Source: Gammaproteobacteria bacterium (GTDB lineage Bacteria; Pseudomonadota; Gammaproteobacteria; CBDBNL01; JAAOII01). From it: a stretch of DNA of 64,000 bases. The notes beneath the pieces were generated by a model. It was not told the DNA's origin. It ran no database searches and saw only the letters and a list, made by a program, of their open reading frames with translations. The position numbers were made by a program, and so were the translations under genes. The stretch covers positions 687,771-751,770 of the forward strand of contig OZ244039.1 in assembly GCA_965215225.1 (NCBI GenBank), read 5' to 3'. Shown here one piece after another: positions 22,773 to 64,000 of this stretch (the first letter of the stretch is position 1; the number at the start of each line of letters is the position of its first letter).

Positions 22773-23208
22773 AAATGAGATTATGTTGTATCTTTGGATT
22801 AAGGCCTTCCATTTGATTTCGGTAGTGGTTTGGTTTGCGGGGTTGTTCTATCTCCCACGCCTGTTTGTCTATCATAGTGCTACTGAGGATGAGAATATGC
22901 AAAAGAGCTATGCGACTATGGAGAGGAGGCTCTATCGTATCATTATGAACCCTGCGGTTATGATGGTTTTTGTTCTCGGGTTTGTTCTTCTCTGGCTAAA
23001 TCCAGCAGTGGCTTATGGCGGTTGGTTTCACATTAAGCTGGTCTTGGTCTTGGCATTGCTGGTATATCATATTTTTTGCGGTAGGATAATGAGATCCTTT
23101 GCTGAAGGAGATAATACTAGGACAACTGGCTTCTATCGTGTTTTCAATGAGGTTCCAACGGTTTTCCTTATAGCTATTGTCGTGCTTGCTGTGGTCAAAC
23201 CCTTCTGA
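22765..23208 (+). CDS. hemJ: Protoporphyrinogen IX oxidase HemJ (CopD/UPF0093 family membrane protein)
   Basis: LYLWIKAFHLISVVVWFAGLFYLPRLFVYH ... FNEVPTVFLIAIVVLAVVKPF, near full-length match to HemJ family. Confidence 0.75.
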   Translation: MIKNEIMLYLWIKAFHLISVVVWFAGLFYLPRLFVYHSATEDENMQKSYATMERRLYRIIMNPAVMMVFVLGFVLLWLNPAVAYGGWFHIKLVLVLALLVYHIFCGRIMRSFAEGDNTRTTGFYRVFNEVPTVFLIAIVVLAVVKPF

Positions 23209-30560: not shown

Positions 30561-31860
30561 TTTTTTTTAGCTTGTAGTTTGTGTAGTTTGTATAGGAGTT
30601 TGTCTTTCCCTTTCTTCACAGCCGCTACCTCTTATTCCTTTCTATTGCCAAGTTGGTATAGGGTTTTGTTTTCCCCTTTCTTTACAGACGCCACCTCTTA
30701 TTCCTTTCTATTGTCAAGTTGGTATAGGATTTTGTCTTTTCCCTTTCTTCGCAGCCGCCGCATTCCTTTATATTGTTAAGTTTGTATAGTTTTTGTCTTT
30801 TCCCTTTCTTCGCAGCCGCCGCATTCCTTTATATTGCTAAGTTTGTATAGGATTTTGTCTGTCCCTTTCTTCGCAGGTATTCATCTACAAGAGTTTACTT
30901 AGTTTGTAATTTGTATAGTTGTATAGGTTCTTGTCTTTCCCTTTCTTCGCAGGTATTCATCTACAAGAGTTTATTTAGTTTGTAATTTGTATAGTTGTAT
31001 AGGTTTTTGTCTTCCCCTTTCTTCGCAGCCGCCTCATTCCTTTATATTGCCAAGTTTGTATAGTTTTTGTCTTTTCCCTTTCTTCGCAGGTATTCATCTA
31101 CAAGAGTTTATTTAGTTTGTAATTTGTATCGGATTTTGTCTTTCCCTTTCTTCGCAGGTATTCATCTACAAGAGTTTATTTAGTTTGTAATTTGTATCGG
31201 ATTTTGTCTTTCCCTTTCTTCGCAGGTATTCATCTACAAGAGTTTATTTAGTTTGTAATTTGTATCGAATTTTGTCTTCTCCCTTTTCTTCACAGCCGCC
31301 CCCTCTCATTCCTTTCTATTGCCAAGTTTGTATAGTTTGTGTGGGGTTTTGTCTTTCCCCTCTTTTTTTCACAGGTATTTATCTATAAGAGTTTATTTAG
31401 TTTGTAGTTTGTATCGAATTTTGTCTTCCCTCTTTTTTTTCACAGCCGCCCCCTCTCATTCGTTTTTATTGCCAAGTTTGTATAGGTTTTTGTTTGTCCC
31501 TTTCTTCGCAGCCGCCGCATTCCTTTATATTGCCAAGTTTGTATAGGTTTTTGTCTTTCCCCTTTCTTCGCAGCCGCCGCATTCCTTTATATTGTTAAGT
31601 TTGTATAGTTTTTGTCTTTTCCCTTTCTTCGCAGCCGCCGCATTCCTTTATATTGCTAAGTTTGTATAGGATTTTGTCTGTCCCTTTCTTCGCAGGTATT
31701 CATCTACAAGAGTTTATTTTGTTTGTAATTTGTATAGTTGTATAGGTTTTTGTCTGTCCCTTTCTTTACAGTCGCCGCATTCCTTTATATTGCCAAGTTT
31801 GTATAGGATTTTGTCTTTCCCCTTCTTCACAGGTATTGATATATAAGAGCGTGAGTTTAC
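30560..31860. repeat. Complex non-coding minisatellite, ~20 units of two interleaved unit types (~61 bp ..tttgtctttccctttcttcgcagccgccgcattcctttatattgccaagtttgtatag.. and ~80 bp ..ttcgcaggtattcatctacaagagtttatttagtttgtaatttgtat..)
   Basis: Direct reading; pyrimidine-rich strand bias; only short spurious ORFs. Confidence 0.85.
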
Positions 31861-32051: not shown

Positions 32052-33359
32052 ATGATAAGATATTTATTCAGACTGCTTGCCTCTTTCTTTACTAGGGCGT
32101 TTGCCTTTTTTATCAGTGTGGTAGTCTTTCTTATCAGGCAGTTCGTACTCTTTATCAGGCAGCTTGTTTTCTTTGTCAAGCAGCTCGTTTTTTTCTTGAT
32201 CAGGCAGCTCAAGTCTTTATACAGGCAACTCGTTTTCTTTATCAAGCAGCTAGTCTCTTTCTTGATCAGGCAGCTCAACTTTCTCGTTACCAAGGTGCCC
32301 AAGTCGCTCGTGCCTTTCATTGCTGAGAAATTTGGGCCATTTTTGTTAGAGCGGTCTCTCCCTTTCTTTATTGGTGCTGGTATTACAGCGGGGACTACCA
32401 TTCCTTATTATGAGTTTCGTGATGATTCAAAAGTACTCACAAAAATTGAAGCATTGCTTAGGAAAATTGACACTATTTCCGGCACCGTTAACAGGACTGA
32501 AGACACTGTTGAAGGAATATTGGCAAACATTACTTCTACTTTAAACATCACTGCCGAGAATCAGATAGTCATTAGAAGTATATCGGCAAACATTAGCTCT
32601 ATTTCCGACATCACTGCCAAGAATGAGATAGCCATTAGAAATATATCGGTAAAGATTGACTCTATTTCCAACACCACTGCCAGGAACGAGAGAGCTATTG
32701 GAGATATATCGGCAGACATTAGTTCTGTATCGAATTATGTTGTCAATAATATTAATAAGACATTAGCTTTCGCTATTCATACTAAAACTGTAGAGATAGA
32801 TCAAATGAATCAAACTATAAATCAAATCATGAGTCAGGCAAAGGATCAAGGGAAAAAAATGTATAGAAGCAATCAAGAAAAATACCAAGAGTATATAGAC
32901 GCTTTACTTAAAAGACAAGGACAATTAGAAAAAGAAGGGAAGGAACTTAGGCAAAAAAGAGATGAGTTTTTGAAAGACCCTTTAAAACCCCTCAATATGT
33001 ATAATAATGATCCTGATGAAATAGCTTCATCGTCTAACTCTATCGAAGAGTTTAATAGAGCCCAAGATAAGTTTATTGTTTACATAACGGATCCAAAGAC
33101 GAAAAACCTTCCTAAGGCAATTCCCCTGATAGTTAATAATAGGGCAGTGCTACTTAATAGGGCGGTGCCAGTTAGACGTGAAATGGGAAAAATGTCATCT
33201 TCAAGCAGCAGTTGCCCATCAAGAGGGCAAGGGATTTTTCTCGGGGAGCTTCTTGATCCTAAAACGAGGAACCCTTTTAGCATCTATAACAGCAATCAGC
33301 CTTTCTTTCTCAATAATGGGATAGGACTAAATAATAGGTGCTTTCTTTATCTCCCTTAG
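32052..33359 (+). CDS. Hypothetical repeat-containing protein
   Basis: 435-aa ORF immediately downstream of the minisatellite. N-terminal 21-nt (7-aa, (I/V)(R/K)QLVFF) tandem repeats. Internal 60-nt/20-aa repeats (I..NISSISDITAKNEIAIRNIS). K/E-rich predicted coiled coil. Coding status not certain. Confidence 0.4.
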   Translation: MIRYLFRLLASFFTRAFAFFISVVVFLIRQFVLFIRQLVFFVKQLVFFLIRQLKSLYRQLVFFIKQLVSFLIRQLNFLVTKVPKSLVPFIAEKFGPFLLERSLPFFIGAGITAGTTIPYYEFRDDSKVLTKIEALLRKIDTISGTVNRTEDTVEGILANITSTLNITAENQIVIRSISANISSISDITAKNEIAIRNISVKIDSISNTTARNERAIGDISADISSVSNYVVNNINKTLAFAIHTKTVEIDQMNQTINQIMSQAKDQGKKMYRSNQEKYQEYIDALLKRQGQLEKEGKELRQKRDEFLKDPLKPLNMYNNDPDEIASSSNSIEEFNRAQDKFIVYITDPKTKNLPKAIPLIVNNRAVLLNRAVPVRREMGKMSSSSSSCPSRGQGIFLGELLDPKTRNPFSIYNSNQPFFLNNGIGLNNRCFLYLP

Positions 33360-33969: not shown

Positions 33970-34612
33970 ATGAGCATGTTTACGGCAGGATCTTTAGGAT
34001 TAATAGGTGGATTGATTCTTCCACTTGTTAAGATCATAGTTAATTCCTGTAATAACCATAGAGAACGCATACATAAGGAGCGAATGAAAGCATTTGAAAT
34101 AGAAGAACTGAAACAGAAAGTGGCTCTTGCAAAAATACAAGGAAATAGCGAACTAAAATCTCAAATGATTGAAGCTAACAAAGAAGTAAATAAGAGTGAA
34201 CAATAAGCAAATAAAGGCATCTGCAATAGAAGGGAATAGCGAACTAAAATCTCAAATGATTGAAGCTAACAAAGAAGCAAATAAAAATGAAACAGAAGAC
34301 AGAAAGTCGGCAAGGACGCATGATGCAGCTAAATATATTTCAACTTTATCTAAGGAGTCGCCTAAATTCGCGTGGTACCTATTTACTATAGTAGATACTC
34401 TTAGAGGATTAGTAAGGCCAATAGTTACTTTTTGGGTGGTTGGTCTTTTTACAGTATTTATACTCTGCCCTGATGAGGAAACGTCAAATTTGTTGTTGAC
34501 TAATGGTAAGGACATTCAGGACATTAAAAATGCACTAATTGGAGTGTTGTTTGCCTGCATAGCATTTTGGTTTGGGGATAAAGTTGCCGAAGGTATTGAA
34601 AAAAAGAAATAG
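33970..34612 (+). pseudogene. Small membrane protein gene split by a 91-bp tandem duplication (track ORFs 33970..34206 and 34196..34612)
   Basis: GNSELKSQMIEANKE(V/A)NK duplicated (copies start 34141 and 34232, 91 bp apart = frameshift); N-terminal TM + two C-terminal TM helices. Confidence 0.45.
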
Positions 34613-34617
34613 AACCG

Positions 34618-35106
34618 GCCATAACTGTGAGCATAACGGCGTTTTTGATTGCGGAGAAAGCGATGCAAGTCATCGCCCGCTTTTTGATTTTTGCGAATCC
34701 AACGATAAAGTGTGACAAATGAGATGCAACAGCTCCCTTCAGAACTCCACCGCCCTGCTATCTGCTCGGGACTCCAGCTTTGTTTCAACGACGCTTGTGC
34801 CTGCGCTTTCACCTCATCGGTTAGCACAGAATAACGAGAACGCTGTTGTTGCCTTGCTTCACTTATTTGCTGAACTTGCTGATGACGATAGGCTTGCTTC
34901 CCGTTATTGCGCTGAGTTTCTCGGCTAATAGTAGAAGGACAAGGATCTAAAAGCGCCGAACTATAAAGTGCATGCTCTTTCCTCATTTTTTCTATTATTG
35001 CTCGTTATTTCTTTGAAATATGGGCATAATGCTTTTTACACGAAACCTCTTTGTTGATTTTCTTGGATGGGATTATATAATCCCGTCAAAGAGGTGTTGC
35101 ACTTAT
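34618..35106 (-). mobile_element. IS30-family element, truncated copy (outer terminal IR + HTH N-terminal ~125 aa of transposase only)
   Basis: ORF 34516..34986(-): ..PSTISRETQRNNGK..WSPEQIAGRW.. IS30 N-terminal signature; 5' region homologous (inverted) to 36167-36320. Confidence 0.65.
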
Positions 35107-35122
35107 GAAGTAAATTCACGAA

Positions 35123-36166
35123 TTGGGACAAAAAGGAGTCATGTTGGAAAAGGGAATGATAGTGGTGGTGGACACCACTGCCATCGAGCTAATCCGTTCT
35201 CGGCTGGAGGATAGCTGCAAAAGGAAGCCCACCCAGGATCCCGAAGCAGACTACAATGGCAAGGTCGGGCGCAAAGCAACTGATGGTTACAAGCTCCATA
35301 CCAATGCGGATGCCGAGGGATGGATCAGGAAGATCGCCGACATGCCCAGCAGCGTCCACATCCCTCAGATGCTCCCAGAACGGATGAGCGGCAATGAACA
35401 AAACGCCAACAACGGATACGCTGGTCAAAAAATTGCCTCACTGCTTGGCGACAAGAGACGCTTTCTTCATCGTCCTTACCGCGATATTCCATTCACCGGA
35501 CGGCAACACCGAGAAAATGCAGCCCGACAAAAAACGCGCAATCTAGTGAAACTCACCTTCGCCCATCTCAAACGCCATTTTGGCTTAACAAAGACCCGTT
35601 ACCTCGGACAAGCACGGAACTACGCATCCGCGCTTCTCACTACTATTGCCTCCAATCTCAAACGAGCCGCACCTAAGACTAAATACTCAATCACCCTCTT
35701 ATTTGTATTGTTAAGTTTTAATGTTGGTTCTACTGAGTATAAGCAGTTATGGTATGGGCCGTTTTGTGTTCGGGATGACTTGAAATTCTGTATAGATATT
35801 TCTTTAAATCCTTATGCAAATTTAGATATTAAGAATTTTGATGGCATAGAGGTTCGGACTGTTCCTTCTCGTCTTTTTAGTGGCGAGCGTCATCTTCGTG
35901 GTGGGCGTCATCCTCCTAATTTGATTTTGCGTAGTCTGAATGGTAATGGCGCGGCCATATTTGTTAAGGATGCGTTTAATGATTTTACTTATCTTACTTA
36001 TAGGACGGGTTTTGATTTTTGCTTTTTTGCTCGGCGTGTTATTGGTGAGGATTTAGAGATTGAGATTGAGGGAGCTCGTTATATTTTAGTTATTTCCAGT
36101 GACACTTCTTGGTCGAATTTTGCTTTGAGTTGTATAGATTATATTGAGTTGAAAAGTGAGTCATGA
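35123..36166 (+). pseudogene. IS4/IS5-family (DDE_Tnp_1) transposase fragment fused to unrelated low-complexity tail
   Basis: VVVDTTAIE (first catalytic D region) ... RNLVKLTFAHLKRHFGLTKTRYLGQARNYASALLTTIASNLKRA (classic IS4/IS5 C-terminal signature); higher GC than surroundings; residues after ~195 lack homology. Confidence 0.55.
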
Positions 36167-37460
36167 ATTCCCACTATAAGTGCAACGCCTCTTTTTTTTA
36201 GAAGGGATTATACAATCCCATCCAAGAAAACCAAAAGAGAGGTCTCGTGTAAAAAGCATTATTTTGTCTTTCAAAAAAGAACGAGCAATGATAGAAAAAT
36301 GAGGAGAGAAGGAAAGAGCATGCGCTCTATAGCTCGGCGCCTAGATCCTTGTTCTTCTACTATTAGCCAAGAGATGCAGCCCAATAGCGGGAAGCGCGGC
36401 GCCCGTCTTTGCAAGCGCATCAAAGAAGCCAAGCCAGACATTTAGAACCTTCTTACTATGAGGTTTTAACTGATCGGATGAAGGAAAAAGCCCGCACTTT
36501 ATTAGAGCGCCAATAGAGTCCAGTCGGCTGGCGTTATGCAGGGGTGTCCTCTTCTAAAAATACGCTGTATTGGTGGATAGAAAAGAATCGCAAAGCAGGT
36601 GGTGACCTACATCCTGCGATGCAATCAAGGACGCCGTCATGCTCTATGGACGAAAAGCCTATTCGCAGTGCATTCCAGGGCGGGTCGGCATAGAAAAGCG
36701 TCTAGCCATAGTCGAAGAACGAAAGCGTCTAGGCGACTGGGAAGCCGATACCATGCGGCCATCATTGCCCACCATTAAGGCTTCCTGGTGACTCTAGTGG
36801 ATCGAAAACTTCTCGGGTCGGCATAGAAAATCATCCAGCCATAGTGGAAAAACGAAAACGACTAGGCGATTGGGAAGCCGATACCACGCGCCCATCATTG
36901 CCCACCATTAAGACTTCTTGGTGACTCTGGTGGATCGAACTTCTCGTCTCGGCATAGAAAAGCGTCCAGCCATAGTCGAAGAACGAAAGCGTCTAGGCGA
37001 CTGGGAAGCCGATACCAACCATCAAGGATTCTTAGTGACCCTGGTCGAACGAACTTCCCGTACTATTCTGATAGCCAAGGTGCCTCGCAAAGAAAAAGAC
37101 TTAGTCGCAAAAGCTATCCTTGCTATGCTCCAACTCATCGCAGACTATGCCTATACCATCTGACAATGGCTGTGAGTTCAGCGACCATTAGAATATCGCT
37201 GAGAAACTCGATTGCGACACCTACTTCGCCACTCCTTATCGCAGCTGGGGAAGAGGTGCCAATGAAAATGCCAATGGACTCATTCGCCAGTAGCTGCCAA
37301 AAAGAATGTCCATCCGAAATTTATCCAACCAAATAATAACACAAATCACCAACCGATTGAACCACCGACCACGAAAGTGCCTCGGATTCAAAACACTCGC
37401 TGAGGTGTTCCAACAACTCAGCGAGGCAGACTATGATTTAGCAACAGGTGTTGCACTTTA
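36167..37460 (+). mobile_element. IS30-family element, degenerate copy (transposase with multiple frameshifts/stops and ~120-bp internal tandem repeats at 36640-37000); IR-like ends ataagtgcaac / gttgcactttaa
   Basis: Fragments MRSIARRLDPCSSTISQEMQPNSGK.. (HTH), ..KRKRLGDWEADT.., ..FATPYRSWGRGANENANGLIRQ.., ..LNHRPRKCLGFKTLAEVF.. in different frames. Confidence 0.7.
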
Positions 37461-37570
37461 AATGTTAATCCACCATATCCGTATGTGGATAACTTAGCAA
37501 AGCATCTTAATGTAATTGTCAATTGATTCTGTCCAGCATATTAATCGGGATCGAATATGCTTTGAATCGC

Positions 37571-37603
37571 GGGGGGGGGGGGGGGGGGGGGGGGCTTTTT
37601 TTT
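37571..37603 (+). repeat. G24 homopolymer followed by T8 at the boundary between IS cluster and CRISPR array
   Basis: Direct count of 24 consecutive G (37571-37594), c, then 8 T. Confidence 0.9.
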
Positions 37604-37626: not shown

Positions 37627-40600
37627 GTTGTGATTTGCGGGCGCTCTCCGATGAGTTAAAATCCGTTTTATATTCATTGGATTGAAGTATCAGTTGTGAT
37701 TTGCGGGCGCTCTCCGATGAGTTAAAATAGCGCTGGGGCGGATCAGCGAAGCATTGGTGTTGTGATTTGCGGGCGCTCTCCGATGAGTTAAAATGCCTCC
37801 CATTTTGAGACCGCGGATGAGAAAGTTGTGATTTGCGGGCGCTCTCCGATGAGTTAAAATGGCGTCTTGAGATGAGAAGCAATGACTTGAGTTGTGATTT
37901 GCGGGCGCTCTCCGATGAGTTAAAATCAACCGAACACAAATCATCCGCTTGGGATTGTTGTGATTTGCGGGCGCTCTCCGATGAGTTAAAATTCGGTAAG
38001 AAAAACAAAGAATGGTGTTGTGGTTGTGATTTGCGGGCGCTCTCCGATGAGTTAAAATAATTGAATTAGACGATGGAAGCTCTTTGCGGTTGTGATTTGC
38101 GGGCGCTCTCCGATGAGTTAAAATTGGACACGGCTTATCCAGGCACGACCCCTTGTTGTGATTTGCGGGCGCTCTCCGATGAGTTAAAATAGTAAAGCCG
38201 TTCAGAGTGCGTTCGAGCGGGTTGTGATTTGCGGGCGCTCTCCGATGAGTTAAAATTAGCTACCCCGCTAAGACTATTTGCTGATTGTTGTGATTTGCGG
38301 GCGCTCTCCGATGAGTTAAAATGCGATGCGCGGGCGATATTTGCATGCGCCCGTTGTGATTTGCGGGCGCTCTCCGATGAGTTAAAATAAATAATAGGAG
38401 GGTGGTAAGAAAAATATTGTTGTGATTTGCGGGCGCTCTCCGATGAGTTAAAATCTGAAACGCAGCAATAGAATCGCCAACGACGTTGTGATTTGCGGGC
38501 GCTCTCCGATGAGTTAAAATTGCTACTTATCAGAAAGCGCTTACCCATCAGTTGTGATTTGCGGGCGCTCTCCGATGAGTTAAAATTCATTCGCCTCTTT
38601 CTTATTGAACTAGGCGTTGTGATTTGCGGGCGCTCTCCGATGAGTTAAAATACTTATGGATTGACAAGAGTGAACTGAGTAGTTGTGATTTGCGGGCGCT
38701 CTCCGATGAGTTAAAATACCGAAGTATACATTTGATTCATCCTTTCGGTTGTGATTTGCGGGCGCTCTCCGATGAGTTAAAATTAAGACACTTTTTTCCT
38801 CCAATCGCTTGAGTTGTGATTTGCGGGCGCTCTCCGATGAGTTAAAATATCACCTTTGCTTGAACGAACGGTTCAAGTGTTGTGATTTGCGGGCGCTCTC
38901 CGATGAGTTAAAATGACTTCTGAACTAGTCCGTGCTAAAATAACAGTTGTGATTTGCGGGCGCTCTCCGATGAGTTAAAATGCAACGCAGGAGCGAACTG
39001 AACGCTATACCGTTGTGATTTGCGGGCGCTCTCCGATGAGTTAAAATCCGTTAAGAATGAGGTAGCGGTCGTGATAAGTTGTGATTTGCGGGCGCTCTCC
39101 GATGAGTTAAAATGCCCTGGCCGCTCGGGCTTCGGCTTCGAGGGTTGTGATTTGCGGGCGCTCTCCGATGAGTTAAAATTTTTTATAAATCGCGTTATTA
39201 TTAGACTCTGTTGTGATTTGCGGGCGCTCTCCGATGAGTTAAAATGGTCGGTGATGGTAGCCGAAGAGAACGGCAGTTGTGATTTGCGGGCGCTCTCCGA
39301 TGAGTTAAAATAGTAAAGCGTGTGCCTCCCCCTCCCGTTATGTTGTGATTTGCGGGCGCTCTCCGATGAGTTAAAATACTGATACCCTACTTGGCAACCT
39401 GCGGAGGGTTGTGATTTGCGGGCGCTCTCCGATGAGTTAAAATTCTACCGCCTGAGACACTTACTGCCTCAGGGTTGTGATTTGCGGGCGCTCTCCGATG
39501 AGTTAAAATTTCACGCTGGCTCGCCAATGGCTAAGTTGGGTTGTGATTTGCGGGCGCTCTCCGATGAGTTAAAATACTTCCCCTGATGAGAACGGGCGGA
39601 ACGCCGTTGTGATTTGCGGGCGCTCTCCGATGAGTTAAAATGCTGAATGGTCGGTGGCATATAAGGAACAAGTTGTGATTTGCGGGCGCTCTCCGATGAG
39701 TTAAAATCGCCAAGCAGCTAAGCCAGATATCATGGGAGTTGTGATTTGCGGGCGCTCTCCGATGAGTTAAAATTTCTTAAGTAAGAAAAGTTAAGAGCAG
39801 AGAGTTGTGATTTGCGGGCGCTCTCCGATGAGTTAAAATCGTTATGATGAGAAAGAACTCAAGGGATTAGTTGTGATTTGCGGGCGCTCTCCGATGAGTT
39901 AAAATCGATATCACTAAGGACGAGACCGAACAAGCGTTGTGATTTGCGGGCGCTCTCCGATGAGTTAAAATCTGTATGACACCAGCAATAACTTCAATGA
40001 TGTTGTGATTTGCGGGCGCTCTCCGATGAGTTAAAATCTTACCCATCAGAAGATGCACGCTCGCAACGTTGTGATTTGCGGGCGCTCTCCGATGAGTTAA
40101 AATCTATTTTTGCTTCTTTGTGGCTAGTTGCCAGTTGTGATTTGCGGGCGCTCTCCGATGAGTTAAAATACCTGAAATTTCAGTGGTGAAATCAGTGAAG
40201 TTGTGATTTGCGGGCGCTCTCCGATGAGTTAAAATGGCTATGTCGGAGTAGATAAGCGTCTGAAAGTTGTGATTTGCGGGCGCTCTCCGATGAGTTAAAA
40301 TCGGCTCTTGGCTGGGTCTTTATAGGCATTAGTTGTGATTTGCGGGCGCTCTCCGATGAGTTAAAATTGCTCTGCAGACCATTGAATTAACATTTGAGTT
40401 GTGATTTGCGGGCGCTCTCCGATGAGTTAAAATACGGAGGTGATACATGAGCCCAGAACTATTGTTGTGATTTGCGGGCGCTCTCCGATGAGTTAAAATC
40501 GCCACCAACCGAGAGAGACGGGCAGGGCAGTTGTGATTTGCGGGCGCTCTCCGATGAGTTAAAATCGATATAAAGGCAAGGGGATGGCAAGATAGGTTGT

Positions 40601-43600: not shown

Positions 43601-46600
43601 TAAGAGGACTGGTCGGCTTGGCGGGTGGTAGTTGTGATTTGCGGGCGCTCTCCGATGAGTTAAAATTCTTAAGGACGAGGTGGCGAAGGGTGATGAGTTG
43701 TGATTTGCGGGCGCTCTCCGATGAGTTAAAATTACGAGTGTAGATGAAGCAGCTCACTATTAGTTGTGATTTGCGGGCGCTCTCCGATGAGTTAAAATAG
43801 AGACCAAAAACGGCCAGAGGATGATAAAGTTGTGATTTGCGGGCGCTCTCCGATGAGTTAAAATTTCTTATGACTGGGGCTCAGCTAGCCCATTGTTGTG
43901 ATTTGCGGGCGCTCTCCGATGAGTTAAAATTCCCTTTTGCCTCTAAATAAGCAGATTGAAGTTGTGATTTGCGGGCGCTCTCCGATGAGTTAAAATTGGT
44001 TCTTTCGAAGAGACCGATGAAAGGGAGTTGTGATTTGCGGGCGCTCTCCGATGAGTTAAAATGGCTTTCAGGTATTCTATTGAAGAGCAGAAGTTGTGAT
44101 TTGCGGGCGCTCTCCGATGAGTTAAAATTGGCGGCTGCTGGGGAGTTGTCAATTTCAGGTTGTGATTTGCGGGCGCTCTCCGATGAGTTAAAATCAGCAA
44201 GGAATTTTCAGAAAAGCTAGAACAGTTGTGATTTGCGGGCGCTCTCCGATGAGTTAAAATGGGCTAGTATGGGGAGGTTATTAATTGGTCGTTGTGATTT
44301 GCGGGCGCTCTCCGATGAGTTAAAATGCCGCCGGAGCATATAGACAAGAATCCGGTGTTGTGATTTGCGGGCGCTCTCCGATGAGTTAAAATGCTGAATC
44401 GCAGGGCAGATGGGTCTGGCAGGTTGTGATTTGCGGGCGCTCTCCGATGAGTTAAAATGTGTTGCCAAAGCTGAGCTAGCTCATCCGCGTTGTGATTTGC
44501 GGGCGCTCTCCGATGAGTTAAAATGAAGCAGTTTATCCGTGCTCTTGAAAGGAAGTTGTGATTTGCGGGCGCTCTCCGATGAGTTAAAATGAAGCAGTTT
44601 ATCCGTGCTCTTGAAAGGAAGTTGTGATTTGCGGGCGCTCTCCGATGAGTTAAAATCACATTCAGAAAGAAATCGGGCTGGAGTTTGTTGTGATTTGCGG
44701 GCGCTCTCCGATGAGTTAAAATTGCCACCAGTTAACGGTCTAGCATATTGGAGTTGTGATTTGCGGGCGCTCTCCGATGAGTTAAAATACCGGGCCAGAT
44801 GAGGAGTATAGGGATTGGGTTGTGATTTGCGGGCGCTCTCCGATGAGTTAAAATCATAGCCTCCTTAGTTAACTCATCCCGCCAGTTGTGATTTGCGGGC
44901 GCTCTCCGATGAGTTAAAATTTAGGAGACTATTATGCGAACTAAAATTCCGTTGTGATTTGCGGGCGCTCTCCGATGAGTTAAAATGAAAGAGACGGCAT
45001 ATGCCCCAAATGGATAGTTGTGATTTGCGGGCGCTCTCCGATGAGTTAAAATAGTAGTAGCCGTGCCCTGTGTGATATTGGAGTTGTGATTTGCGGGCGC
45101 TCTCCGATGAGTTAAAATTTTCTGGGCGATTGGCTTACCAGAAAAGAGTTGTGATTTGCGGGCGCTCTCCGATGAGTTAAAATGTGATAAGAGCGATATA
45201 GTTAAGATACTTCGTTGTGATTTGCGGGCGCTCTCCGATGAGTTAAAATGGCCGGGAAGGTGGTCCCAGCCGGGACCAGGTTGTGATTTGCGGGCGCTCT
45301 CCGATGAGTTAAAATAAGGAACGGCGGAAGGATTGATGGGATTAAGTTGTGATTTGCGGGCGCTCTCCGATGAGTTAAAATGAGCAAATTAGCGAGCAGC
45401 TTAATCAATAAGTTGTGATTTGCGGGCGCTCTCCGATGAGTTAAAATGGTCGCGGTGGCAATCCCGCCGCCAACCTCGTTGTGATTTGCGGGCGCTCTCC
45501 GATGAGTTAAAATGAACATAAGGGAGGACGAGTTGAAGGGGAAGTTGTGATTTGCGGGCGCTCTCCGATGAGTTAAAATCTGCCAAAAATCGTCCCTTCT
45601 CTTGACAAGGTTGTGATTTGCGGGCGCTCTCCGATGAGTTAAAATTTGAATAAAATAAATACCTGTTTTACTATAGTTGTGATTTGCGGGCGCTCTCCGA
45701 TGAGTTAAAATTCAATCATCTTTCTTTCTTTCTCGATTCATGTTGTGATTTGCGGGCGCTCTCCGATGAGTTAAAATGATGAGCCGTGGCATTATACCAG
45801 CCGCGACGTTGTGATTTGCGGGCGCTCTCCGATGAGTTAAAATCGGCTTTAAGGTGCTGAACTGATGAAGTTAGTTGTGATTTGCGGGCGCTCTCCGATG
45901 AGTTAAAATCTATTCGCTTGAACGCCTTGCCTTCTTACTGTTGTGATTTGCGGGCGCTCTCCGATGAGTTAAAATTTTATTGAATATCAGACTTACGAAG
46001 ATGCAGTTGTGATTTGCGGGCGCTCTCCGATGAGTTAAAATATCAAGTATTGCCAATGCCTCTCCTTGATGGTTGTGATTTGCGGGCGCTCTCCGATGAG
46101 TTAAAATTGAGATTAAAGTCAGTATCAGCCAAGAAAGGTTGTGATTTGCGGGCGCTCTCCGATGAGTTAAAATTAACTTTCATAATACTAAACAAAAAAA
46201 GGCGTTGTGATTTGCGGGCGCTCTCCGATGAGTTAAAATAATGCTTTAGGCAAAGTCATCGGCTCGCTAGTTGTGATTTGCGGGCGCTCTCCGATGAGTT
46301 AAAATCGGGAGGGCTGGAGGGTTTTATCACCTACAGTTGTGATTTGCGGGCGCTCTCCGATGAGTTAAAATATGCGAGGGGCTGCCATATCCATATCACC
46401 GGTTGTGATTTGCGGGCGCTCTCCGATGAGTTAAAATATGCACGGAGCGGGGGAGCTGAGCATCTCGGTTGTGATTTGCGGGCGCTCTCCGATGAGTTAA
46501 AATGAACGATTTGGAGCTTCTTGGCGTTTTGCAGTTGTGATTTGCGGGCGCTCTCCGATGAGTTAAAATGCCAGATAATCAAGCCCATCCCAAACCAATG

Positions 46601-49600
46601 TTGTGATTTGCGGGCGCTCTCCGATGAGTTAAAATCCACGCTCAAAAATGAGCTGGCTGAGCTTAGTTGTGATTTGCGGGCGCTCTCCGATGAGTTAAAA
46701 TGGTAGAAAGCGACTGGACTGAAGCAGTAGCGTTGTGATTTGCGGGCGCTCTCCGATGAGTTAAAATGACTATTGACGCGACCCATTATGAACCAGAGTT
46801 GTGATTTGCGGGCGCTCTCCGATGAGTTAAAATGACTATTGACGCGACCCATTATGAACCAGAGTTGTGATTTGCGGGCGCTCTCCGATGAGTTAAAATT
46901 CCTGTTCTTGTAGATCGTTCGACCCGCTAGTTGTGATTTGCGGGCGCTCTCCGATGAGTTAAAATCAGTTGACGCCAACCACACGCGCTCATTAAGTTGT
47001 GATTTGCGGGCGCTCTCCGATGAGTTAAAATGAGCATAAAGATAAGCTGGAATATAAGATAGTTGTGATTTGCGGGCGCTCTCCGATGAGTTAAAATCCA
47101 TCATATACCGGTAACGTGGCTTAGCACGTTGTGATTTGCGGGCGCTCTCCGATGAGTTAAAATCAACTCGCCATTAAGATGACTAAGCTATTGGTTGTGA
47201 TTTGCGGGCGCTCTCCGATGAGTTAAAATACTTTATATGGCGGAATGTATCCGACCAGCGTTGTGATTTGCGGGCGCTCTCCGATGAGTTAAAATAATTT
47301 TTACAGGCGGAAGGAATTTTTAAGAGTTGTGATTTGCGGGCGCTCTCCGATGAGTTAAAATCTCGGACTCATTCGCTAAGCGAGACTCAAGGTTGTGATT
47401 TGCGGGCGCTCTCCGATGAGTTAAAATTTGTTTGGATGGCTATTAATGAAGCGAACCGTTGTGATTTGCGGGCGCTCTCCGATGAGTTAAAATATTGCTT
47501 CGGGGAAGGCGGCCGCCGGGCCGGTTGTGATTTGCGGGCGCTCTCCGATGAGTTAAAATAAGAAGGCGCTGAAATACCACCACCAACCGGTTGTGATTTG
47601 CGGGCGCTCTCCGATGAGTTAAAATTTGATATAAAGGGTCAGATGTAGGATGGCGGTTGTGATTTGCGGGCGCTCTCCGATGAGTTAAAATGCTAGTAAG
47701 ACCATAACTCATCTAGCGCTTGTTGTGATTTGCGGGCGCTCTCCGATGAGTTAAAATCTTCGGTGAGTGAGATGGTGAAGCACGCAAGTTGTGATTTGCG
47801 GGCGCTCTCCGATGAGTTAAAATGGAGGTTCCTGCCTATGATGGCGGGCTGGAGTTGTGATTTGCGGGCGCTCTCCGATGAGTTAAAATACTCAGCTGGC
47901 TAATGAGCTGAGCTTAAAGGTTGTGATTTGCGGGCGCTCTCCGATGAGTTAAAATCACTCGGCAGGCGCTCGCACAACCAACCCAGTTGTGATTTGCGGG
48001 CGCTCTCCGATGAGTTAAAATACAAAACATCGGAGCGTTCCTGCATCGTTCGTTGTGATTTGCGGGCGCTCTCCGATGAGTTAAAATTGATGATACTCCC
48101 ATCTTAAACCCTGAGGAGTTGTGATTTGCGGGCGCTCTCCGATGAGTTAAAATTTGCGCTCTGTCGTGGAATAATGAAGAAGAGTTGTGATTTGCGGGCG
48201 CTCTCCGATGAGTTAAAATCTCGATACTACTATCGCCCGGCAAACCGGCGTTGTGATTTGCGGGCGCTCTCCGATGAGTTAAAATATAGCCATCCTCATC
48301 CTCTATCTCATCCTTGTTGTGATTTGCGGGCGCTCTCCGATGAGTTAAAATGTAAGCGGACGGCGGCGTCTTAAACAATACGTTGTGATTTGCGGGCGCT
48401 CTCCGATGAGTTAAAATTACCAAGCCCAAATCCAAACAACCAAACAAGTTGTGATTTGCGGGCGCTCTCCGATGAGTTAAAATTTTGGGCTGAGGCGAGG
48501 CATCCCATGAGGTGTTGTGATTTGCGGGCGCTCTCCGATGAGTTAAAATGGCGCTTTATCTTGGTCGTTCGGACCGAGTGTTGTGATTTGCGGGCGCTCT
48601 CCGATGAGTTAAAATATCGAGAGAAAATATAAGGTGCATAGAGAAGTTGTGATTTGCGGGCGCTCTCCGATGAGTTAAAATGTTTATTAGCAATACTCAA
48701 TCTGCAAGGCGGTTGTGATTTGCGGGCGCTCTCCGATGAGTTAAAATATACCAAGACCGCTCCCGTGATGATATCGCGTTGTGATTTGCGGGCGCTCTCC
48801 GATGAGTTAAAATACCATAGAACAATATATTGTCATTGTTCCTGTTGTGATTTGCGGGCGCTCTCCGATGAGTTAAAATCATCGCAATTGCATTGATATC
48901 TACTCAGAAGTTGTGATTTGCGGGCGCTCTCCGATGAGTTAAAATACAAATATAGTGAGCCCTCCTCTTATATGCGTTGTGATTTGCGGGCGCTCTCCGA
49001 TGAGTTAAAATATAATACCCGAGCACGCCAAAGCATAATAAGTTGTGATTTGCGGGCGCTCTCCGATGAGTTAAAATTGATTGATCGAGACAAGTTACCA
49101 CTGCTTAGTTGTGATTTGCGGGCGCTCTCCGATGAGTTAAAATACCGTAATGGATTAATATACCCGACCGACCGTTGTGATTTGCGGGCGCTCTCCGATG
49201 AGTTAAAATCGATGTTGATCTGCGGGTAATAAGAACTATGTTGTGATTTGCGGGCGCTCTCCGATGAGTTAAAATCCCGAGAGCATTGAATTATGGCTGG
49301 ACGGCAGTTGTGATTTGCGGGCGCTCTCCGATGAGTTAAAATCCCATATACCGCCAGTAAGACCGGGCGCATGTTGTGATTTGCGGGCGCTCTCCGATGA
49401 GTTAAAATCATGCCACCTATATTGCGGACGCATTGCGCGTTGTGATTTGCGGGCGCTCTCCGATGAGTTAAAATGCAATCCTGCCGTATAATAATAGCTG
49501 AGAGGTTGTGATTTGCGGGCGCTCTCCGATGAGTTAAAATTTATGTGCCGAACGGATGGGAGGAAGGGGAGTTGTGATTTGCGGGCGCTCTCCGATGAGT

Positions 49601-52600
49601 TAAAATCCGCTTGGGAAGAATTAAACATAGTGATAGGTTGTGATTTGCGGGCGCTCTCCGATGAGTTAAAATCGCCGATCACACCACATCAATCGGCTCG
49701 CGGTTGTGATTTGCGGGCGCTCTCCGATGAGTTAAAATATATGGCAGGGGGGACCATTATCCAGCACGGTTGTGATTTGCGGGCGCTCTCCGATGAGTTA
49801 AAATGTCTGTTGATTCAAAATTATCATCGCCATAGTTGTGATTTGCGGGCGCTCTCCGATGAGTTAAAATCGCTATTCCTTTCTCTACTGCCATTATACA
49901 GTTGTGATTTGCGGGCGCTCTCCGATGAGTTAAAATCATAAATAAATGTATTATGCTTACTATTATGTTGTGATTTGCGGGCGCTCTCCGATGAGTTAAA
50001 ATGACTACTGATATTCCGGCATCCGGTCTTGAGTTGTGATTTGCGGGCGCTCTCCGATGAGTTAAAATTGTAGTAAGAACGAGTCGGTTGGGTAGTATGT
50101 TGTGATTTGCGGGCGCTCTCCGATGAGTTAAAATGGATTTGCCGTCCATCAAAATAATAGATTATGTTGTGATTTGCGGGCGCTCTCCGATGAGTTAAAA
50201 TCCATTGGCATCGATTCAGTTCAAACTGAAAGTTGTGATTTGCGGGCGCTCTCCGATGAGTTAAAATCGATTATTGCCCATAAAACCAGAAGGGGCAGTT
50301 GTGATTTGCGGGCGCTCTCCGATGAGTTAAAATCGCTGACTTATGGTGAAGCGGCGACTGTTGGTTGTGATTTGCGGGCGCTCTCCGATGAGTTAAAATC
50401 GGATGATACCGTGGATGTTCTTACCCTCCGTTGTGATTTGCGGGCGCTCTCCGATGAGTTAAAATTGACTTTATGAAGATAAACCAGCATGCGCTGTTGT
50501 GATTTGCGGGCGCTCTCCGATGAGTTAAAATTTCAAACCAAATATCCTTTTCTGAATGTTCGTTGTGATTTGCGGGCGCTCTCCGATGAGTTAAAATCTG
50601 ATGATGTAATTATTGAAGGGTCCCAGGGTTGTGATTTGCGGGCGCTCTCCGATGAGTTAAAATAAAAGTTCTGGGCTACTCATCGCACGGGCGGTTGTGA
50701 TTTGCGGGCGCTCTCCGATGAGTTAAAATGCTCGTTTTGTTGGTTTTTTTGGTGCGTCAGTTGTGATTTGCGGGCGCTCTCCGATGAGTTAAAATAATTC
50801 GTTTCCGCATCGGTCATGTTCTTAGGTTGTGATTTGCGGGCACTCTCCGATGAGTTAAAATTTTTCTTGTATGGGACTTATGAATGCTATTGTTGTGATT
50901 TGCGGGCGCTCTCCGATGAGTTAAAATTACCAATCCTATATTCCCCCCAGATACTAAGTTGTGATTTGCGGGCGCTCTCCGATGAGTTAAAATCCGAGGC
51001 AACCTACATCCTCACCACCCCCGGTTGTGATTTGCGGGCGCTCTCCGATGAGTTAAAATCGGTTGAATTTCAACAATTCAGACAACCCAGTTGTGATTTG
51101 CGGGCGCTCTCCGATGAGTTAAAATCAATAAGAACGGATTGAATGATAACTGAATGTTGTGATTTGCGGGCGCTCTCCGATGAGTTAAAATTAATGGTTT
51201 GTGTTTAGTTTCTTTGCCTTTGTTGTGATTTGCGGGCGCTCTCCGATGAGTTAAAATTATGCCTATAAAGAGCCAATGGCACTACCAGTTGTGATTTGCG
51301 GGCGCTCTCCGATGAGTTAAAATTCTGCGGGCGGAGGAGTGGAATTCTATCATAGTTGTGATTTGCGGGCGCTCTCCGATGAGTTAAAATACACGCTCCA
51401 GGACTTATTTAGTCCTGTGCGTTGTGATTTGCGGGCGCTCTCCGATGAGTTAAAATTGGATGGCTAAGCTGAAGCTCCTTTCATTAGTTGTGATTTGCGG
51501 GCGCTCTCCGATGAGTTAAAATAGCTGGTAGGGATTTATCAGCTGGAGGTTAGTTGTGATTTGCGGGCGCTCTCCGATGAGTTAAAATTATCGGTCGTCT
51601 TATCAATACCTCATTAACGTTGTGATTTGCGGGCGCTCTCCGATGAGTTAAAATGGTCAGCTAGCCCGTTCAGTATAGGCTGGTGTTGTGATTTGCGGGC
51701 GCTCTCCGATGAGTTAAAATGTATATTTTAAGGGCGGCGGGGAGTTTATTGTTGTGATTTGCGGGCGCTCTCCGATGAGTTAAAATAGGCTCACGCTTAG
51801 GCGCTCGGGTTGAATTGTTGTGATTTGCGGGCGCTCTCCGATGAGTTAAAATTCACGGACCGAGGCAATGATTTATTGGGACGTTGTGATTTGCGGGCGC
51901 TCTCCGATGAGTTAAAATGATGATAGCCATGAGGGTTGGTTTTTGAATGTTGTGATTTGCGGGCGCTCTCCGATGAGTTAAAATGCGCCAAAGATGGCAG
52001 CTGAATAATAAAGTGTTGTGATTTGCGGGCGCTCTCCGATGAGTTAAAATATGATTGGCTAGGCAAGGGTATAAAGAGCCGTTGTGATTTGCGGGCGCTC
52101 TCCGATGAGTTAAAATCTCTGTCCCGCTCATACCAATATTCATCTTGTTGTGATTTGCGGGCGCTCTCCGATGAGTTAAAATCCAAACCAAAATGGCGCT
52201 TATAAGCCAAAGGTTGTGATTTGCGGGCGCTCTCCGATGAGTTAAAATGATGACCTTGACACTCTATCGGATAGAGTGGTTGTGATTTGCGGGCGCTCTC
52301 CGATGAGTTAAAATCGGGGAAAACGCCCCCCGTAGCAATAACTTGTTGTGATTTGCGGGCGCTCTCCGATGAGTTAAAATCGCCCGCGCACCGCCTTACT
52401 GCACTATGACGTTGTGATTTGCGGGCGCTCTCCGATGAGTTAAAATGCGCTCGTTAGCTCGGGTCTTTCTTAACTCGTTGTGATTTGCGGGCGCTCTCCG
52501 ATGAGTTAAAATCTTAGCTAATCAGGCAATAACAGGGGCAGCGTTGTGATTTGCGGGCGCTCTCCGATGAGTTAAAATTAATGAACTGAAATCCCCCAGA

Positions 52601-63925: not shown

Positions 63926-64000
63926 ACTATCCGCAAAAAACAGCGTGAGCAGTGAGAAAAGCCGCTGAGCAAATAAAAAACTGATTTGTTCTGGCGGCTT

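Follow-up and report, generated by a model that had tools for sequence, protein, structure and literature searches.

The window analyzed here, a 64,000-nucleotide stretch of a 2.3-Mb contig, is occupied over its right-hand part by a CRISPR array in which 36-nt repeats, 399 in number, are separated by 398 spacers, as determined by exact and fuzzy pattern counts between positions 37627 and 63925. The array is 26 kb long, or ~1.1% of the contig, and its end lies inside the window, with 75 nt of right flank visible. The preliminary description of this DNA reported repeats from 37627 to 37800; those repeats are real, but their extent was understated, as this interval holds only the first 2.6 units of the 399-repeat array. 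The end of a cas2 gene at the right edge of the window was also overlooked. The features of the locus are listed below by position in the window.

37571-37603, plus strand: G24-C-T8 tract, ending 23 nt before the first repeat
37627-63925, plus strand (inferred transcribed strand): CRISPR array, from pattern counts, with the strand taken from that of the tracrRNA at homologous loci
37627-37662, plus strand: first repeat, cas-distal and unmutated, which would be the oldest, 'extra' repeat by II-C polarity (PMC12080349)
37657-37662, plus strand: TAAAAT, a -10-like hexamer at the repeat 3' end, read from the sequence and present in all 399 repeats
50826-50861, plus strand: sole variant repeat, with G changed to A at 50842
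63890-63925, plus strand: last repeat, cas2-proximal, from the pattern count; the spacer-addition side in II-C systems (PMC12080349)
63926-63973, no strand assigned: leader-equivalent 48 nt that separate the last repeat from the end of the cas2 coding sequence, corresponding to a 47-51 nt spacing in 21 relatives
63959-64000, no strand assigned: strong hairpin, AAGCCGC-U-GAGCAAAU / AUUUGUUC-UG-GCGGCUU, overlapping the cas2 end
63974-64000, minus strand: last nine homologous cas2 codons, KPPEQISFL, from protein and DNA alignment with the Cas2 C-termini of relatives (..EKPPEQLSFF*)

The repeat, GTTGTGATTTGCGGGCGCTCTCCGATGAGTTAAAAT, is found at 37627, 37693 and 37759 with 30-nt spacers in between, a regularity that far exceeds chance. 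Across the whole array the spacers measure 29-31 nt (~368 of 30 nt, 17 of 29 nt and 12 of 31 nt), and the pattern counts thus confirmed the 36/30 layout reported previously. With the exception of the single variant, the repeats are identical (398 of 399), both terminal ones included. Several protospacers were acquired more than once. Folding of the repeat gave -6.0 kcal/mol on the plus strand (z = -0.02) and -2.2 kcal/mol on the minus strand (z = 0.23), neither of which is significant, in agreement with the earlier claim that the repeat forms no hairpin. An unstructured repeat of ~36 nt with spacers of ~30 nt, which is a criterion for type II-C systems, was therefore observed.

The 37 kb to the left of the array contain housekeeping genes and IS debris, and no type I or type III cas genes, the presence of which beside the array would have spoken against a tracrRNA-dependent system. 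A hairpin at 37535-37560 was considered as a terminator upstream of the array and was dropped, as it is not kept in the genome of a sister organism. Searches of the window outside the array for an anti-repeat by wobble-tolerant local alignment gave a best score of 30, whereas shuffled sequences averaged 27 and reached 38 at most; this best alignment sits in the D-arm of a tRNA. Additionally, a covariance model built from the tracrRNAs of related loci had no match in the window outside the array, and an Rfam scan of positions 1-38200 returned tRNA only. All three analyses are in line with the previous statement that the flanks of the array hold no anti-repeat. Such an absence is to be expected, since the tracrRNA of related loci lies ~5 kb beyond the array.

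These related loci were collected by scanning genomes for pairs of GTTGTGATTTGC copies at CRISPR spacing, which yielded 118 loci, and metagenomes for the first 8 nt of the repeat alone, which yielded 120. The exact repeat of the window had no match in collections of genomes, metagenomes and papers. In public contigs, more than 50 distinct repeats that combine the 5' end GTTGTGATTTGC with the 3' signature T..G.TA.A.T adjoin cas9-cas1-cas2. Altogether, ~75 arrays adjoin Cas1 and/or Cas9, with both present at ~50 of them and Cas1 only at ~19 more, where the locus is cut. The tblastn queries used for these assignments were verified as TIGR01865 Cas9 (E = 5e-186) and TIGR03639 type II Cas1 (E = 8e-88). 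Only six of the ~75 cas-linked arrays depart from an arrangement in which the cas genes are downstream and oppositely oriented. Where the repeat begins with GTTGTGATTTGC and the period is 66 nt, the gene order after the array is cas2, cas1, cas9, again on the other strand. In a few arrays (e.g., L121, L135, L163 and L167) cas genes were absent from the several kb of downstream flank. The nearest repeats, all of them Cas9-linked, match that of the window at 24-27 of 36 positions, or at 12-15 of the 24 positions not fixed by the search; the similarity search was anchored on the 5' end of the repeat, and resemblance at that end is partly built in. T26, G29, T31, A32, A34 and T36 are invariant among the nearest repeats and the window repeat.

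The right edge of the window carries what would be the beginning of the same arrangement. The peptide KPPEQISFL occurs once across all six frames of the window, and the array abuts the cas2 end to which it belongs, so that there is no space between them for csn2 or cas4. The cas2 frame has no stop codon at the homologous position and stays open to a TGA at 63875-63877, a read-through of 32 codons into the array; a T6 run is present on the coding strand in the region of the missing stop (63970-63980). Within the leader-equivalent stretch, CCGCAAAAAACAGC (63931-63944) is complementary to repeat positions 1-14, with a duplex energy of -17.9 kcal/mol (z = -3.85). The hairpin that follows folds with z-scores of -4.06 (plus strand) and -2.2 (minus strand) and has an equivalent in relatives; it is probably a terminator, placed where the array and the convergent cas operon meet. 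On the basis of these similarities, the remainder of cas2, and probably cas1, cas9 and the tracrRNA gene, are predicted to lie just right of base 64000 in this genome.

The loci of relatives also provided the anti-repeat that had been proposed as a check, located beside cas9 at homologous arrays and covarying with the repeat. In 16 relatives, a tracrRNA of ~105-115 nt lies next to the cas9 start on the side facing away from the array, ~5 kb from the latter; it has its own -10 box and terminator, diverges from cas9 and is encoded on the strand of the repeat. Its first 22 nt covary with the repeat, and the resulting repeat:anti-repeat helix is 97% paired, with compensatory changes in 15 of 22 pairs. 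This covariation was equaled by none of 500 shuffles, and registers slid from the proposed one paired at 39% or less. As the tracrRNAs of relatives lie on the strand on which the repeat is written, the plus strand would be the transcribed one, and the rightward transcription claimed in the preliminary description can be upheld by homology. The strand that pairs with the tracrRNA in relatives points at cas2 in the window. Production of crRNA from the opposite strand was also considered and was dropped, given the -10 box, the terminator and the lower-stem pairing of the relatives' tracrRNA. Degenerate repeats in relatives occur at the cas-distal end of the array, while the window array is perfect at both ends.

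Altogether, the cas9-linked homologous arrays and the Cas2 codons of the window support the tracrRNA-dependent, type II-C reading proposed previously. We consider it highly probable that this array, which the window covers almost completely, belongs to a type II-C (Cas9) system, with the presence and integrity of cas9, cas1 and the tracrRNA presumed by homology. Other CRISPR types would account for these data less well. Type VI-B loci have cas13b beside an array whose 36-nt repeat has GTTG...CAAC ends, and they typically lack cas1 and cas2. Another class 2 system with a 36/30 layout, such as type VI-B, could be read into the minus strand, where the repeat ends in ..AAUCACAAC and both the layout and the CACAAC end resemble Cas13b repeats; arrays starting with GTTGTGATTACC or GTTGTGATTCCC (L110 and L002), whose flanks lack Cas9 and Cas1 over several kb, would also fit, even though no large effector ORF was visible at these two loci when they were viewed as possible Cas13b controls. 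However, type II Cas2 codons abut the array, the other end of the repeat is ATTTTAAC and not GTTG, and the nearest repeats are Cas9-linked, as are most arrays that share the 12-nt start GTTGTGATTTGC and have enough flank. As the host is, in addition, a gammaproteobacterium, we regard a system of this kind as very improbable. A type I or type III array, with repeats cut by a Cas6-type enzyme, is hardly conceivable: very long arrays are better known from these types, which is the only point in its favor, but the repeat has no hairpin, a ..GAAAC/G 3' handle is present on neither strand, such cas genes are absent from the left 37 kb, and the relatives of the repeat are all type II.

The reference repeats of N. 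meningitidis and C. jejuni quoted in the preliminary description match the literature (PMC4607530). The Neisseria meningitidis system (Nme1Cas9; Zhang et al. 2013, summarised in PMC5965381) has, like the window, an unstructured 36-nt repeat with a GTTGT start and 30-nt spacers, although repeat identity is low apart from the ends. Its repeat ends in a -10-like TACAAT, compared with TAAAAT in the window, and it includes the 'TG' of an extended -10 that is absent from the window repeat. The neisserial locus contains only cas9, cas1 and cas2, and its crRNAs arise from repeat-internal promoters, whereas cas9 and the tracrRNA of the present genome are presumed from homology; its arrays hold tens of spacers, against ~400 here. 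The Campylobacter jejuni II-C system (Dugar et al. 2013; PMC12080349) shares the 36/30 layout and TAAAAT at the repeat 3' end with the window, but its arrays are very short, and its TGGTAAAAT, with an extended -10, corresponds to AGTTAAAAT in the window repeat. Upstream of the array, C. jejuni has a Rho-independent terminator where the window has the G24-C-T8 tract.

Also close are loci of uncultured Proteobacteria with type II-C systems, for example those of a Thiomicrospira MAG (OZ239628.1, L175), Methylococcales MAGs (L126, L148 and L162) and SUP05/Ruthturnera-like MAGs (L134, L138 and L185). These share with the window the first 12-14 nt of the repeat, the 3' signature T..G.TA.A.T, the spacing from the last repeat to the cas2 stop, the hairpin and the Cas2 C-terminus. 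In them the array is followed by opposite-strand cas2-cas1-cas9 and then by the tracrRNA; in the window, the array and the cas2 end could be read. They differ from the window in the central 18 nt of the repeat, in array size (3-60 repeats within 8-kb loci), in a first repeat that is often degenerate and in a normal cas2 stop.

By homology, the type II-C array of the window would be transcribed from left to right on the plus strand, towards an oppositely running cas2-cas1-cas9 operon of which the cas2 end lies in the last 27 bases of the window. The tracrRNA would be expected ~5 kb further right, beyond cas9 and on the plus strand, with a 5' end of roughly ATTTTAACTCATCGGAGAGCGCC and, after it, GCTTTTCATACC-like sequence and a terminator. 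Each crRNA would then carry a spacer joined to 5' sequence from the repeat after it, and would enter Cas9 as a duplex with the tracrRNA. In II-C systems spacers are added at the last repeat, the first being the 'extra' one, as described in C. jejuni (PMC12080349), and new spacers would accordingly enter here at the right-hand, cas2-proximal repeat. Transcription would probably begin, at least in part, inside each repeat at a weak promoter, comparable to those of Neisseria and Campylobacter, so that the 26-kb array could be expressed along its whole length.

The prior claim that each repeat ends in TAAAAT holds for all 399 copies. Upstream of the hexamer are a G at -14 and, at a distance of 16 nt, TTGCGG (TTGcgg-N16-TAAAAT); the -35 element agrees with the consensus at 3 of its 6 positions, and the extended -10 'TG' is missing its T. 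Across 14 relatives, T31, A32, A34 and T36 are invariant, with positions 33 and 35 covarying with the tracrRNA (TAnAnT), and TGnTATAAT or TGnTAAACT occurs at the homologous position in some relatives. A plain sigma-70 scan called no promoter in the repeats. Repeat-internal promoters have been documented in two II-C systems, Neisseria and Campylobacter (PMC5965381); a promoter in each repeat is a trait of these systems and not a formal requirement of type II-C. Repeat-embedded promoters are a plausible proposal for the window array, based on sequence and on conservation in the family.

Two variants of the type II-C reading have to be weighed at this point. In one of them, a single long precursor would be transcribed from a promoter in the left flank and processed by RNase III, with the TAAAAT of the repeat inactive. 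The incomplete -35 and extended -10 elements and the outcome of the sigma-70 scan are consistent with this, and the positions that never vary may have been kept because the Cas1-Cas2 integrase or Cas9 recognizes them. However, one promoter would have to drive 26 kb, and invariance at 31, 32, 34 and 36 combined with covariation at 33 and 35 is the pattern expected of a -10 box; the fuller promoter motifs of some relatives and the documented precedents in two II-C systems also speak against it. The conserved terminator-like hairpin after the last repeat likewise makes sense if that repeat fires towards cas2. We consider a single precursor doubtful, if still a serious candidate. In the other variant, the cas operon is decaying, and the array is either a recent relic or served by Cas proteins encoded elsewhere. 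The lack of a stop in the cas2 frame over 32 codons and the IS debris in the left flank point this way. In addition, a query with the read-through tail alone found it in no called protein of a 5.8-billion-protein collection that includes the proteins of this genome, and none of the best 120 matches to a relative's Cas2 joined to the read-through tail came from this contig or that of the sister genome, for which reason cas2 may be damaged. On the other hand, ORFs overlapping CRISPR arrays may be passed over in gene calling, which makes the missing protein weak evidence, and a Cas2 of ~60% identity would score below 178 bits, the lowest score of those best 120 matches. The identity of 398 of 399 repeats, terminal ones included, also speaks against decay, and the different and equally perfect spacer set of the sister genome indicates recent acquisition; we regard decay of the operon as unlikely.

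The sister genome shows 96-99% identity in the flanking genes and carries the identical repeat at the same locus in at least 100 perfect copies, with G27-C-T9 where the window has G24-C-T8. No spacers were shared when the cas-distal 6.6 kb of the sister array was compared; its at least 99 spacers all differ from the 398 of the window. Different spacers in an equally perfect array argue for recent activity. As to the origin of the spacers, megablast of the whole array against phages and plasmids gave no match, nor did a search of IMG/VR with four 24-mers from repeatedly acquired spacers, and comparison of the spacers with 240 fetched loci and the remaining window sequence gave chance matches of 15-17 nt only. 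Derivation of a PAM from overlapping spacers was attempted and dropped, as dovetails of 10-13 nt are near chance; the PAM would be expected 3' of the protospacer, probably at an offset of a few N.

The locus thus belongs to a known kind, a Cas9 (type II-C) array, and what is new is a very large member of it. Very long arrays exist elsewhere, and that of Haliangium ochraceum DSM 14365 belongs, we assume, to a different CRISPR type from the array of the window. With 587 spacers, it is cited as the longest known (PMC10076291) and serves here as a size comparison only. The 364 non-redundant II-C arrays surveyed previously total 7208 repeats, or ~20 each (PMC12080349), so that the window array is about twenty times the usual length, while otherwise an ordinary kind of bacterial immune memory. 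In Neisseria, rising crRNA leaves less free apoCas9 and thereby damps spacer acquisition (PMC12477760). Because of its 399 repeats, the complete replacement of the spacers read in the sister array and the repeated acquisition of several protospacers, it is conceivable, if improbable, that the present system has escaped the brake that keeps II-C arrays short and acquires spacers at a permanently high rate. Possible causes would be weak repeat promoters, with no extended -10, that keep crRNA scarce, or a changed adaptation module, given the read-through at the Cas2 C-terminus.

These observations suggest that the repeat by itself can be enough to assign an array to a subtype with good confidence, even with the effector outside the sequence, provided that there are homologous arrays in which the cas genes are visible. 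With ~400 spacers, the array is an extreme case among type II-C arrays, and its 398 spacers, together with the at least 99 of the sister genome, constitute a record of the mobile elements attacking an uncultured gammaproteobacterial lineage. It would also offer a natural test of whether repeat promoters enable very long arrays and whether crRNA abundance limits their growth.

The preliminary description placed 36-bp repeats with 30-bp spacers at 37627-37800. This was confirmed, and the interval proved to cover only the initial two and a half units of a much larger CRISPR array. A pattern count over the whole window returned 398 exact copies of GTTGTGATTTGCGGGCGCTCTCCGATGAGTTAAAAT, and one variant repeat with a single G-to-A change lies at 50826-50861, bringing the total to 399 repeats and 41% of the window. 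The array ends inside the window, leaving a right flank of 75 nt. Its 398 spacers are mostly 30 nt long (29 nt in 17 cases, 31 nt in 12). Folding of the repeat was no better than that of shuffled sequence on either strand, in line with the earlier observation that it lacks a hairpin. The first repeat is unmutated; a mutated first repeat has been reported in 60% of II-C arrays (PMC12080349). The features discussed here are listed below.

12375-13244: 289-aa ORF with an SPPY motif, adjoining a tRNA
23208-25640: dnaX, with an acidic Lys/Glu-rich repeat region at 24380-24870
30585-31849: 1.3-kb non-coding tandem array
32052-33359: repeat-rich ORF
34516-37473: transposase debris
37571-37603: G24-C-T8 tract, 23 nt ahead of the first repeat
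37627-63925: CRISPR array
63875-63877, minus strand: TGA closing the predicted cas2 frame
63931-63944: imperfect inverted copy of the first 14-16 nt of the repeat, right after the last repeat
63974-64000 (final 27 bases), minus strand: putative cas2 end

Only about nine repeated spacers were found among the 398. Two pairs are tandem duplicates (44525-44620 and 46768-46863), and the others are dispersed single repeats or re-acquisitions shifted by 1-2 nt, some of them one base longer at the 3' end; spacer comparison within the window placed the distant pairs at 38257/63067, 42414/58977, 60891/63727, 56670/57065 and 57264/57461. No duplicated blocks were detected anywhere in the array, and its length therefore does not derive from segmental duplication. 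This suggests that certain spacers were acquired more than once, from hot protospacers and not by block duplication. No protospacer was found by megablast of the whole array against phages and plasmids, with four 24-mers from repeatedly acquired spacers in IMG/VR, or by comparing the spacers with the rest of the window and 240 fetched loci; overlaps between spacers were too short to be trusted for deriving a PAM. The final spacer base is A in 40% of the window spacers (p = 4e-6), a bias also present in the closest relative, the Thiomicrospira MAG OZ239628.1 (62%), and in some others. Additionally, spacer position 13 is depleted and position 19 enriched in T (p < 0.001).

The preliminary description had named adjacent type I or III cas genes as a finding at odds with its reading; no cas gene was found in the 37 kb left of the array. 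Profile matches there identified nrdB, a glpD-like gene and argG, and domains from the genes of a sister genome (ENA ERZ25070776, contig_12, 1,806,920 bp) added hemA, prfA, lpxC, dnaX, ybaB, recR, map and two transporters. The G-tract recurs just upstream of the first repeat in the sister genome, there as G27-C-T9, which shows the tract to be real and of variable length; it occupies the position where some II-C arrays have a terminator insulating the array from outside transcription. The non-coding tandem array, lying between a transporter gene and the repeat-rich ORF in units of 61-68 nt (136-nt double units) with 69-94% matches, is also present in the sister genome, and was ruled out as a CRISPR because it has no unique spacers. 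Likewise shared is the transposase debris, which includes an ORF with weak DDE transposase matches (35123-36166), a frame-broken transposase-like stretch in which a 133-nt segment recurs 2.6 times (36681-37017), and similar 31-nt end sequences at 35089 and 37443. The two genomes differ in the 289-aa ORF, whose SPPY motif we take to be typical of N4/N6 DNA methyltransferases and which is missing at the same place in the sister, and in the length of the acidic region of DnaX (810 aa in the window genome vs 865 aa).

No exact copy of the repeat was found in genome, metagenome or paper collections. Two relaxed scans, of metagenomes for three copies of its first 8 nt at CRISPR spacing and of species-representative genomes for two copies of its first 12 nt, both returned many arrays with a 36-nt repeat and a 66-nt period. 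For a tblastn census, large neighbouring ORFs from four loci served as queries, confirmed with NCBIfam as Cas9 (TIGR01865, lowest E 5e-186) and type II Cas1 (TIGR03639, E ~1e-88), and every locus was oriented so that the repeat reads GTTGTGAT.... Cas1 and/or Cas9 adjoin about 75 arrays: about 50 have both, and about 19 more have Cas1 only because the locus is cut. A few arrays have no cas gene despite several kb of downstream flank (e.g. loci L121, L135, L163 and L167). Six of the roughly 75 arrays depart from the arrangement of the rest, in which the cas genes are found downstream on the opposite strand; four of the six (L001, L054, L237, L151) have palindromic GTTG...CAAC-type repeat ends that leave their orientation ambiguous. 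In the relatives, cas1 starts about 400 nt past the last repeat with cas9 behind it, and the gap is filled by a Cas2 ORF of about 110 aa; in 21 of the 22 loci examined, 47-51 nt separate its stop from the last repeat. With only cas9, cas1 and cas2, and an array abutting cas2, the relatives are therefore type II-C loci. The closest repeats, all Cas9-linked, belong to the Thiomicrospira MAG, Pyrinomonadaceae and Acidobacteriota MAGs and Methylococcales, among others; they match the window repeat at 24-27 of 36 positions (12-15 of the 24 not fixed by the search) and have T26, G29, T31, A32, A34 and T36 in common with it, which are the most conserved free positions in the non-Bacteroidota subgroup.

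At the right edge of the window, the minus strand reads KPPEQISFL, and Cas2 C-termini of the family read ..EKPPEQLSFF, ..EQPPEQLSLF or ..EKTPEQISLF. This putative cas2 end also aligns with the relatives at the DNA level, as does the hairpin between it and the adjacent downstream sequence. It lies 45-48 nt from the last repeat, as in the family, and is the single match to a permissive motif pattern in six frames of the 64-kb window. We take the window edge as direct evidence of what would be a type II-C cas2 abutting the array. The adjacent inverted copy of the repeat start pairs at 12 of 14 positions (-17.9 kcal/mol, z = -3.85), has weaker counterparts in many proteobacterial relatives (flanks of L028, L224, L123, L133, L168, L125, L140, L169 and others), and may either serve spacer integration as a leader signal or belong to a terminator. 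Because of its repeat, layout and cas2 end, the array can be assigned with good confidence to a proteobacterial branch of type II-C, as the predicted tracrRNA-dependent, II-C-like system had it. It is not a new kind of system, being related in plan to those of Neisseria and Campylobacter; its unusual feature is its size.

The anti-repeat proposed to lie beside cas9 was found in 16 relatives, where the best repeat complement outside the array sits just past the cas9 start codon and shares the strand of the repeat as written; its distance from the start codon is 20-70 nt in most loci and 300-420 nt in four of them. These complements belong to tracrRNAs of about 105-115 nt. A TATAAT-like box precedes the start of each by 7 nt. 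Their first 22-26 nt are complementary to the 3' part of the repeat, and each finishes with a pair of hairpins followed by an intrinsic terminator. In the main proteobacterial subgroup a conserved GCUUUUCAUACCAA follows the complementary stretch and is able to pair with the conserved repeat start GUUGUGAUUUGC, interrupted by an internal U-rich loop; L219, L197 and L147 deviate in this part. In an alignment of 14 pairs, the 22-bp repeat/anti-repeat helix is 97% paired, with both-sided changes at 15 helix pairs (reached by 0 of 500 shuffles), and slid registers are 26-39% paired. Because the tracrRNA carries a promoter and a terminator of its own, its strand is settled, and the crRNA would have to come from the GTTGTGAT... 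strand. We thus predict with good confidence that the window array is transcribed from the plus strand, towards cas2, agreeing with the rightward direction first proposed. In four SUP05/Ruthturnera-like loci (L138, L134, L185, L124), cas9 and the tracrRNA gene are separated by a 300-400-nt spacer, absent from other relatives, that contains a single partial repeat (gttgtgatttgcataagc[ga]atagtc...) some 100 nt ahead of the tracrRNA gene. This partial repeat might act as a natural single guide-like element, e.g. in autoregulation.

No anti-repeat was found in the window itself, as noted previously. Wobble-tolerant local alignment of the repeat complement with all sequence outside the array gave a top score of 30, inside a tRNA (shuffles: mean 27, maximum 38). 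A tracrRNA covariance model built from 12 relatives recognized positive controls outside its training set (L134, 78.6 bits; L219, 24.8; L197, 22.7) and returned from the window a 17-bit match inside the array and a 13.6-bit match at 13634-13719 (E = 0.6, chance level). This absence is expected, because the family tracrRNA lies about 5 kb past the array.

Promoters inside repeats have been shown for the II-C arrays of N. meningitidis and C. jejuni (PMC5965381), and according to a recent survey the II-C configuration combines repeat promoters with the addition of new spacers to the last repeat (PMC12080349). The window repeat shares its terminal hexamer, TAAAAT, with C. jejuni; it has G at -14, A rather than T at -15, and TTGCGG 16 nt upstream. 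The hexamer from which repeat-embedded promoters were predicted is in place; a plain sigma-70 scan requiring at least 4/6 matches in each hexamer did not call it. Comparison with relatives gives the stronger argument. In the 14-relative alignment, repeat positions 31, 32, 34 and 36 are invariant, 33 and 35 vary, and other positions of the repeat/anti-repeat helix change freely with compensation; some relatives have TGGTATAAT, TGCTAAACT or AGTTATAAT there. The resulting TAnAnT pattern is what a -10 element would impose, and the same four positions could alternatively be kept for the integrase or Cas9. On balance we lean slightly towards a promoter in the repeats. Such a promoter in every repeat would explain how a 26-kb array could be expressed, and also the strong hairpin right after the last repeat, which would block that repeat's promoter from firing antisense into cas2.

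At the position homologous to the stop of 21 relatives, the cas2 frame stays open; it runs on for 32 more codons, crossing the last repeat and ending within the last spacer. Genuine loss of the stop, a sequencing error in a homopolymer (a T6 run is present) and decay are all possible explanations. A damaged adaptation module would fit with the read-through tail occurring in no called protein of a large protein collection, and with no Cas2 from the window's contig or the sister contig being among the best 120 Cas2 matches. We nonetheless consider such damage unlikely given the sister genome, which is 96-99% identical across housekeeping genes, with two small proteins identical. Its locus has the same repeat in at least 100 perfect copies, continuing beyond the fetched stretch, and none of its 99 visible spacers, the cas-distal ones and hence the oldest in type II-C, matches the 398 here, exactly or with up to 5 mismatches. 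Since divergence of the two genomes, their arrays have undergone complete turnover. This and the perfect repeats speak for a system that was active recently, even with the unusual cas2 end.

It is the extreme length and turnover of the array that give it moderate interest. A set of 364 non-redundant II-C arrays together held 7208 repeats, about 20 each (PMC12080349), vs 399 here, and 587 spacers are given as the record across all CRISPR types (PMC10076291). In Neisseria, acquisition is damped as an array lengthens, by a feedback of crRNA abundance that acts via apoCas9 (PMC12477760). The present array, with its great length and its complete turnover between near-identical genomes, falls outside this pattern, and its lineage may have a weak acquisition brake.
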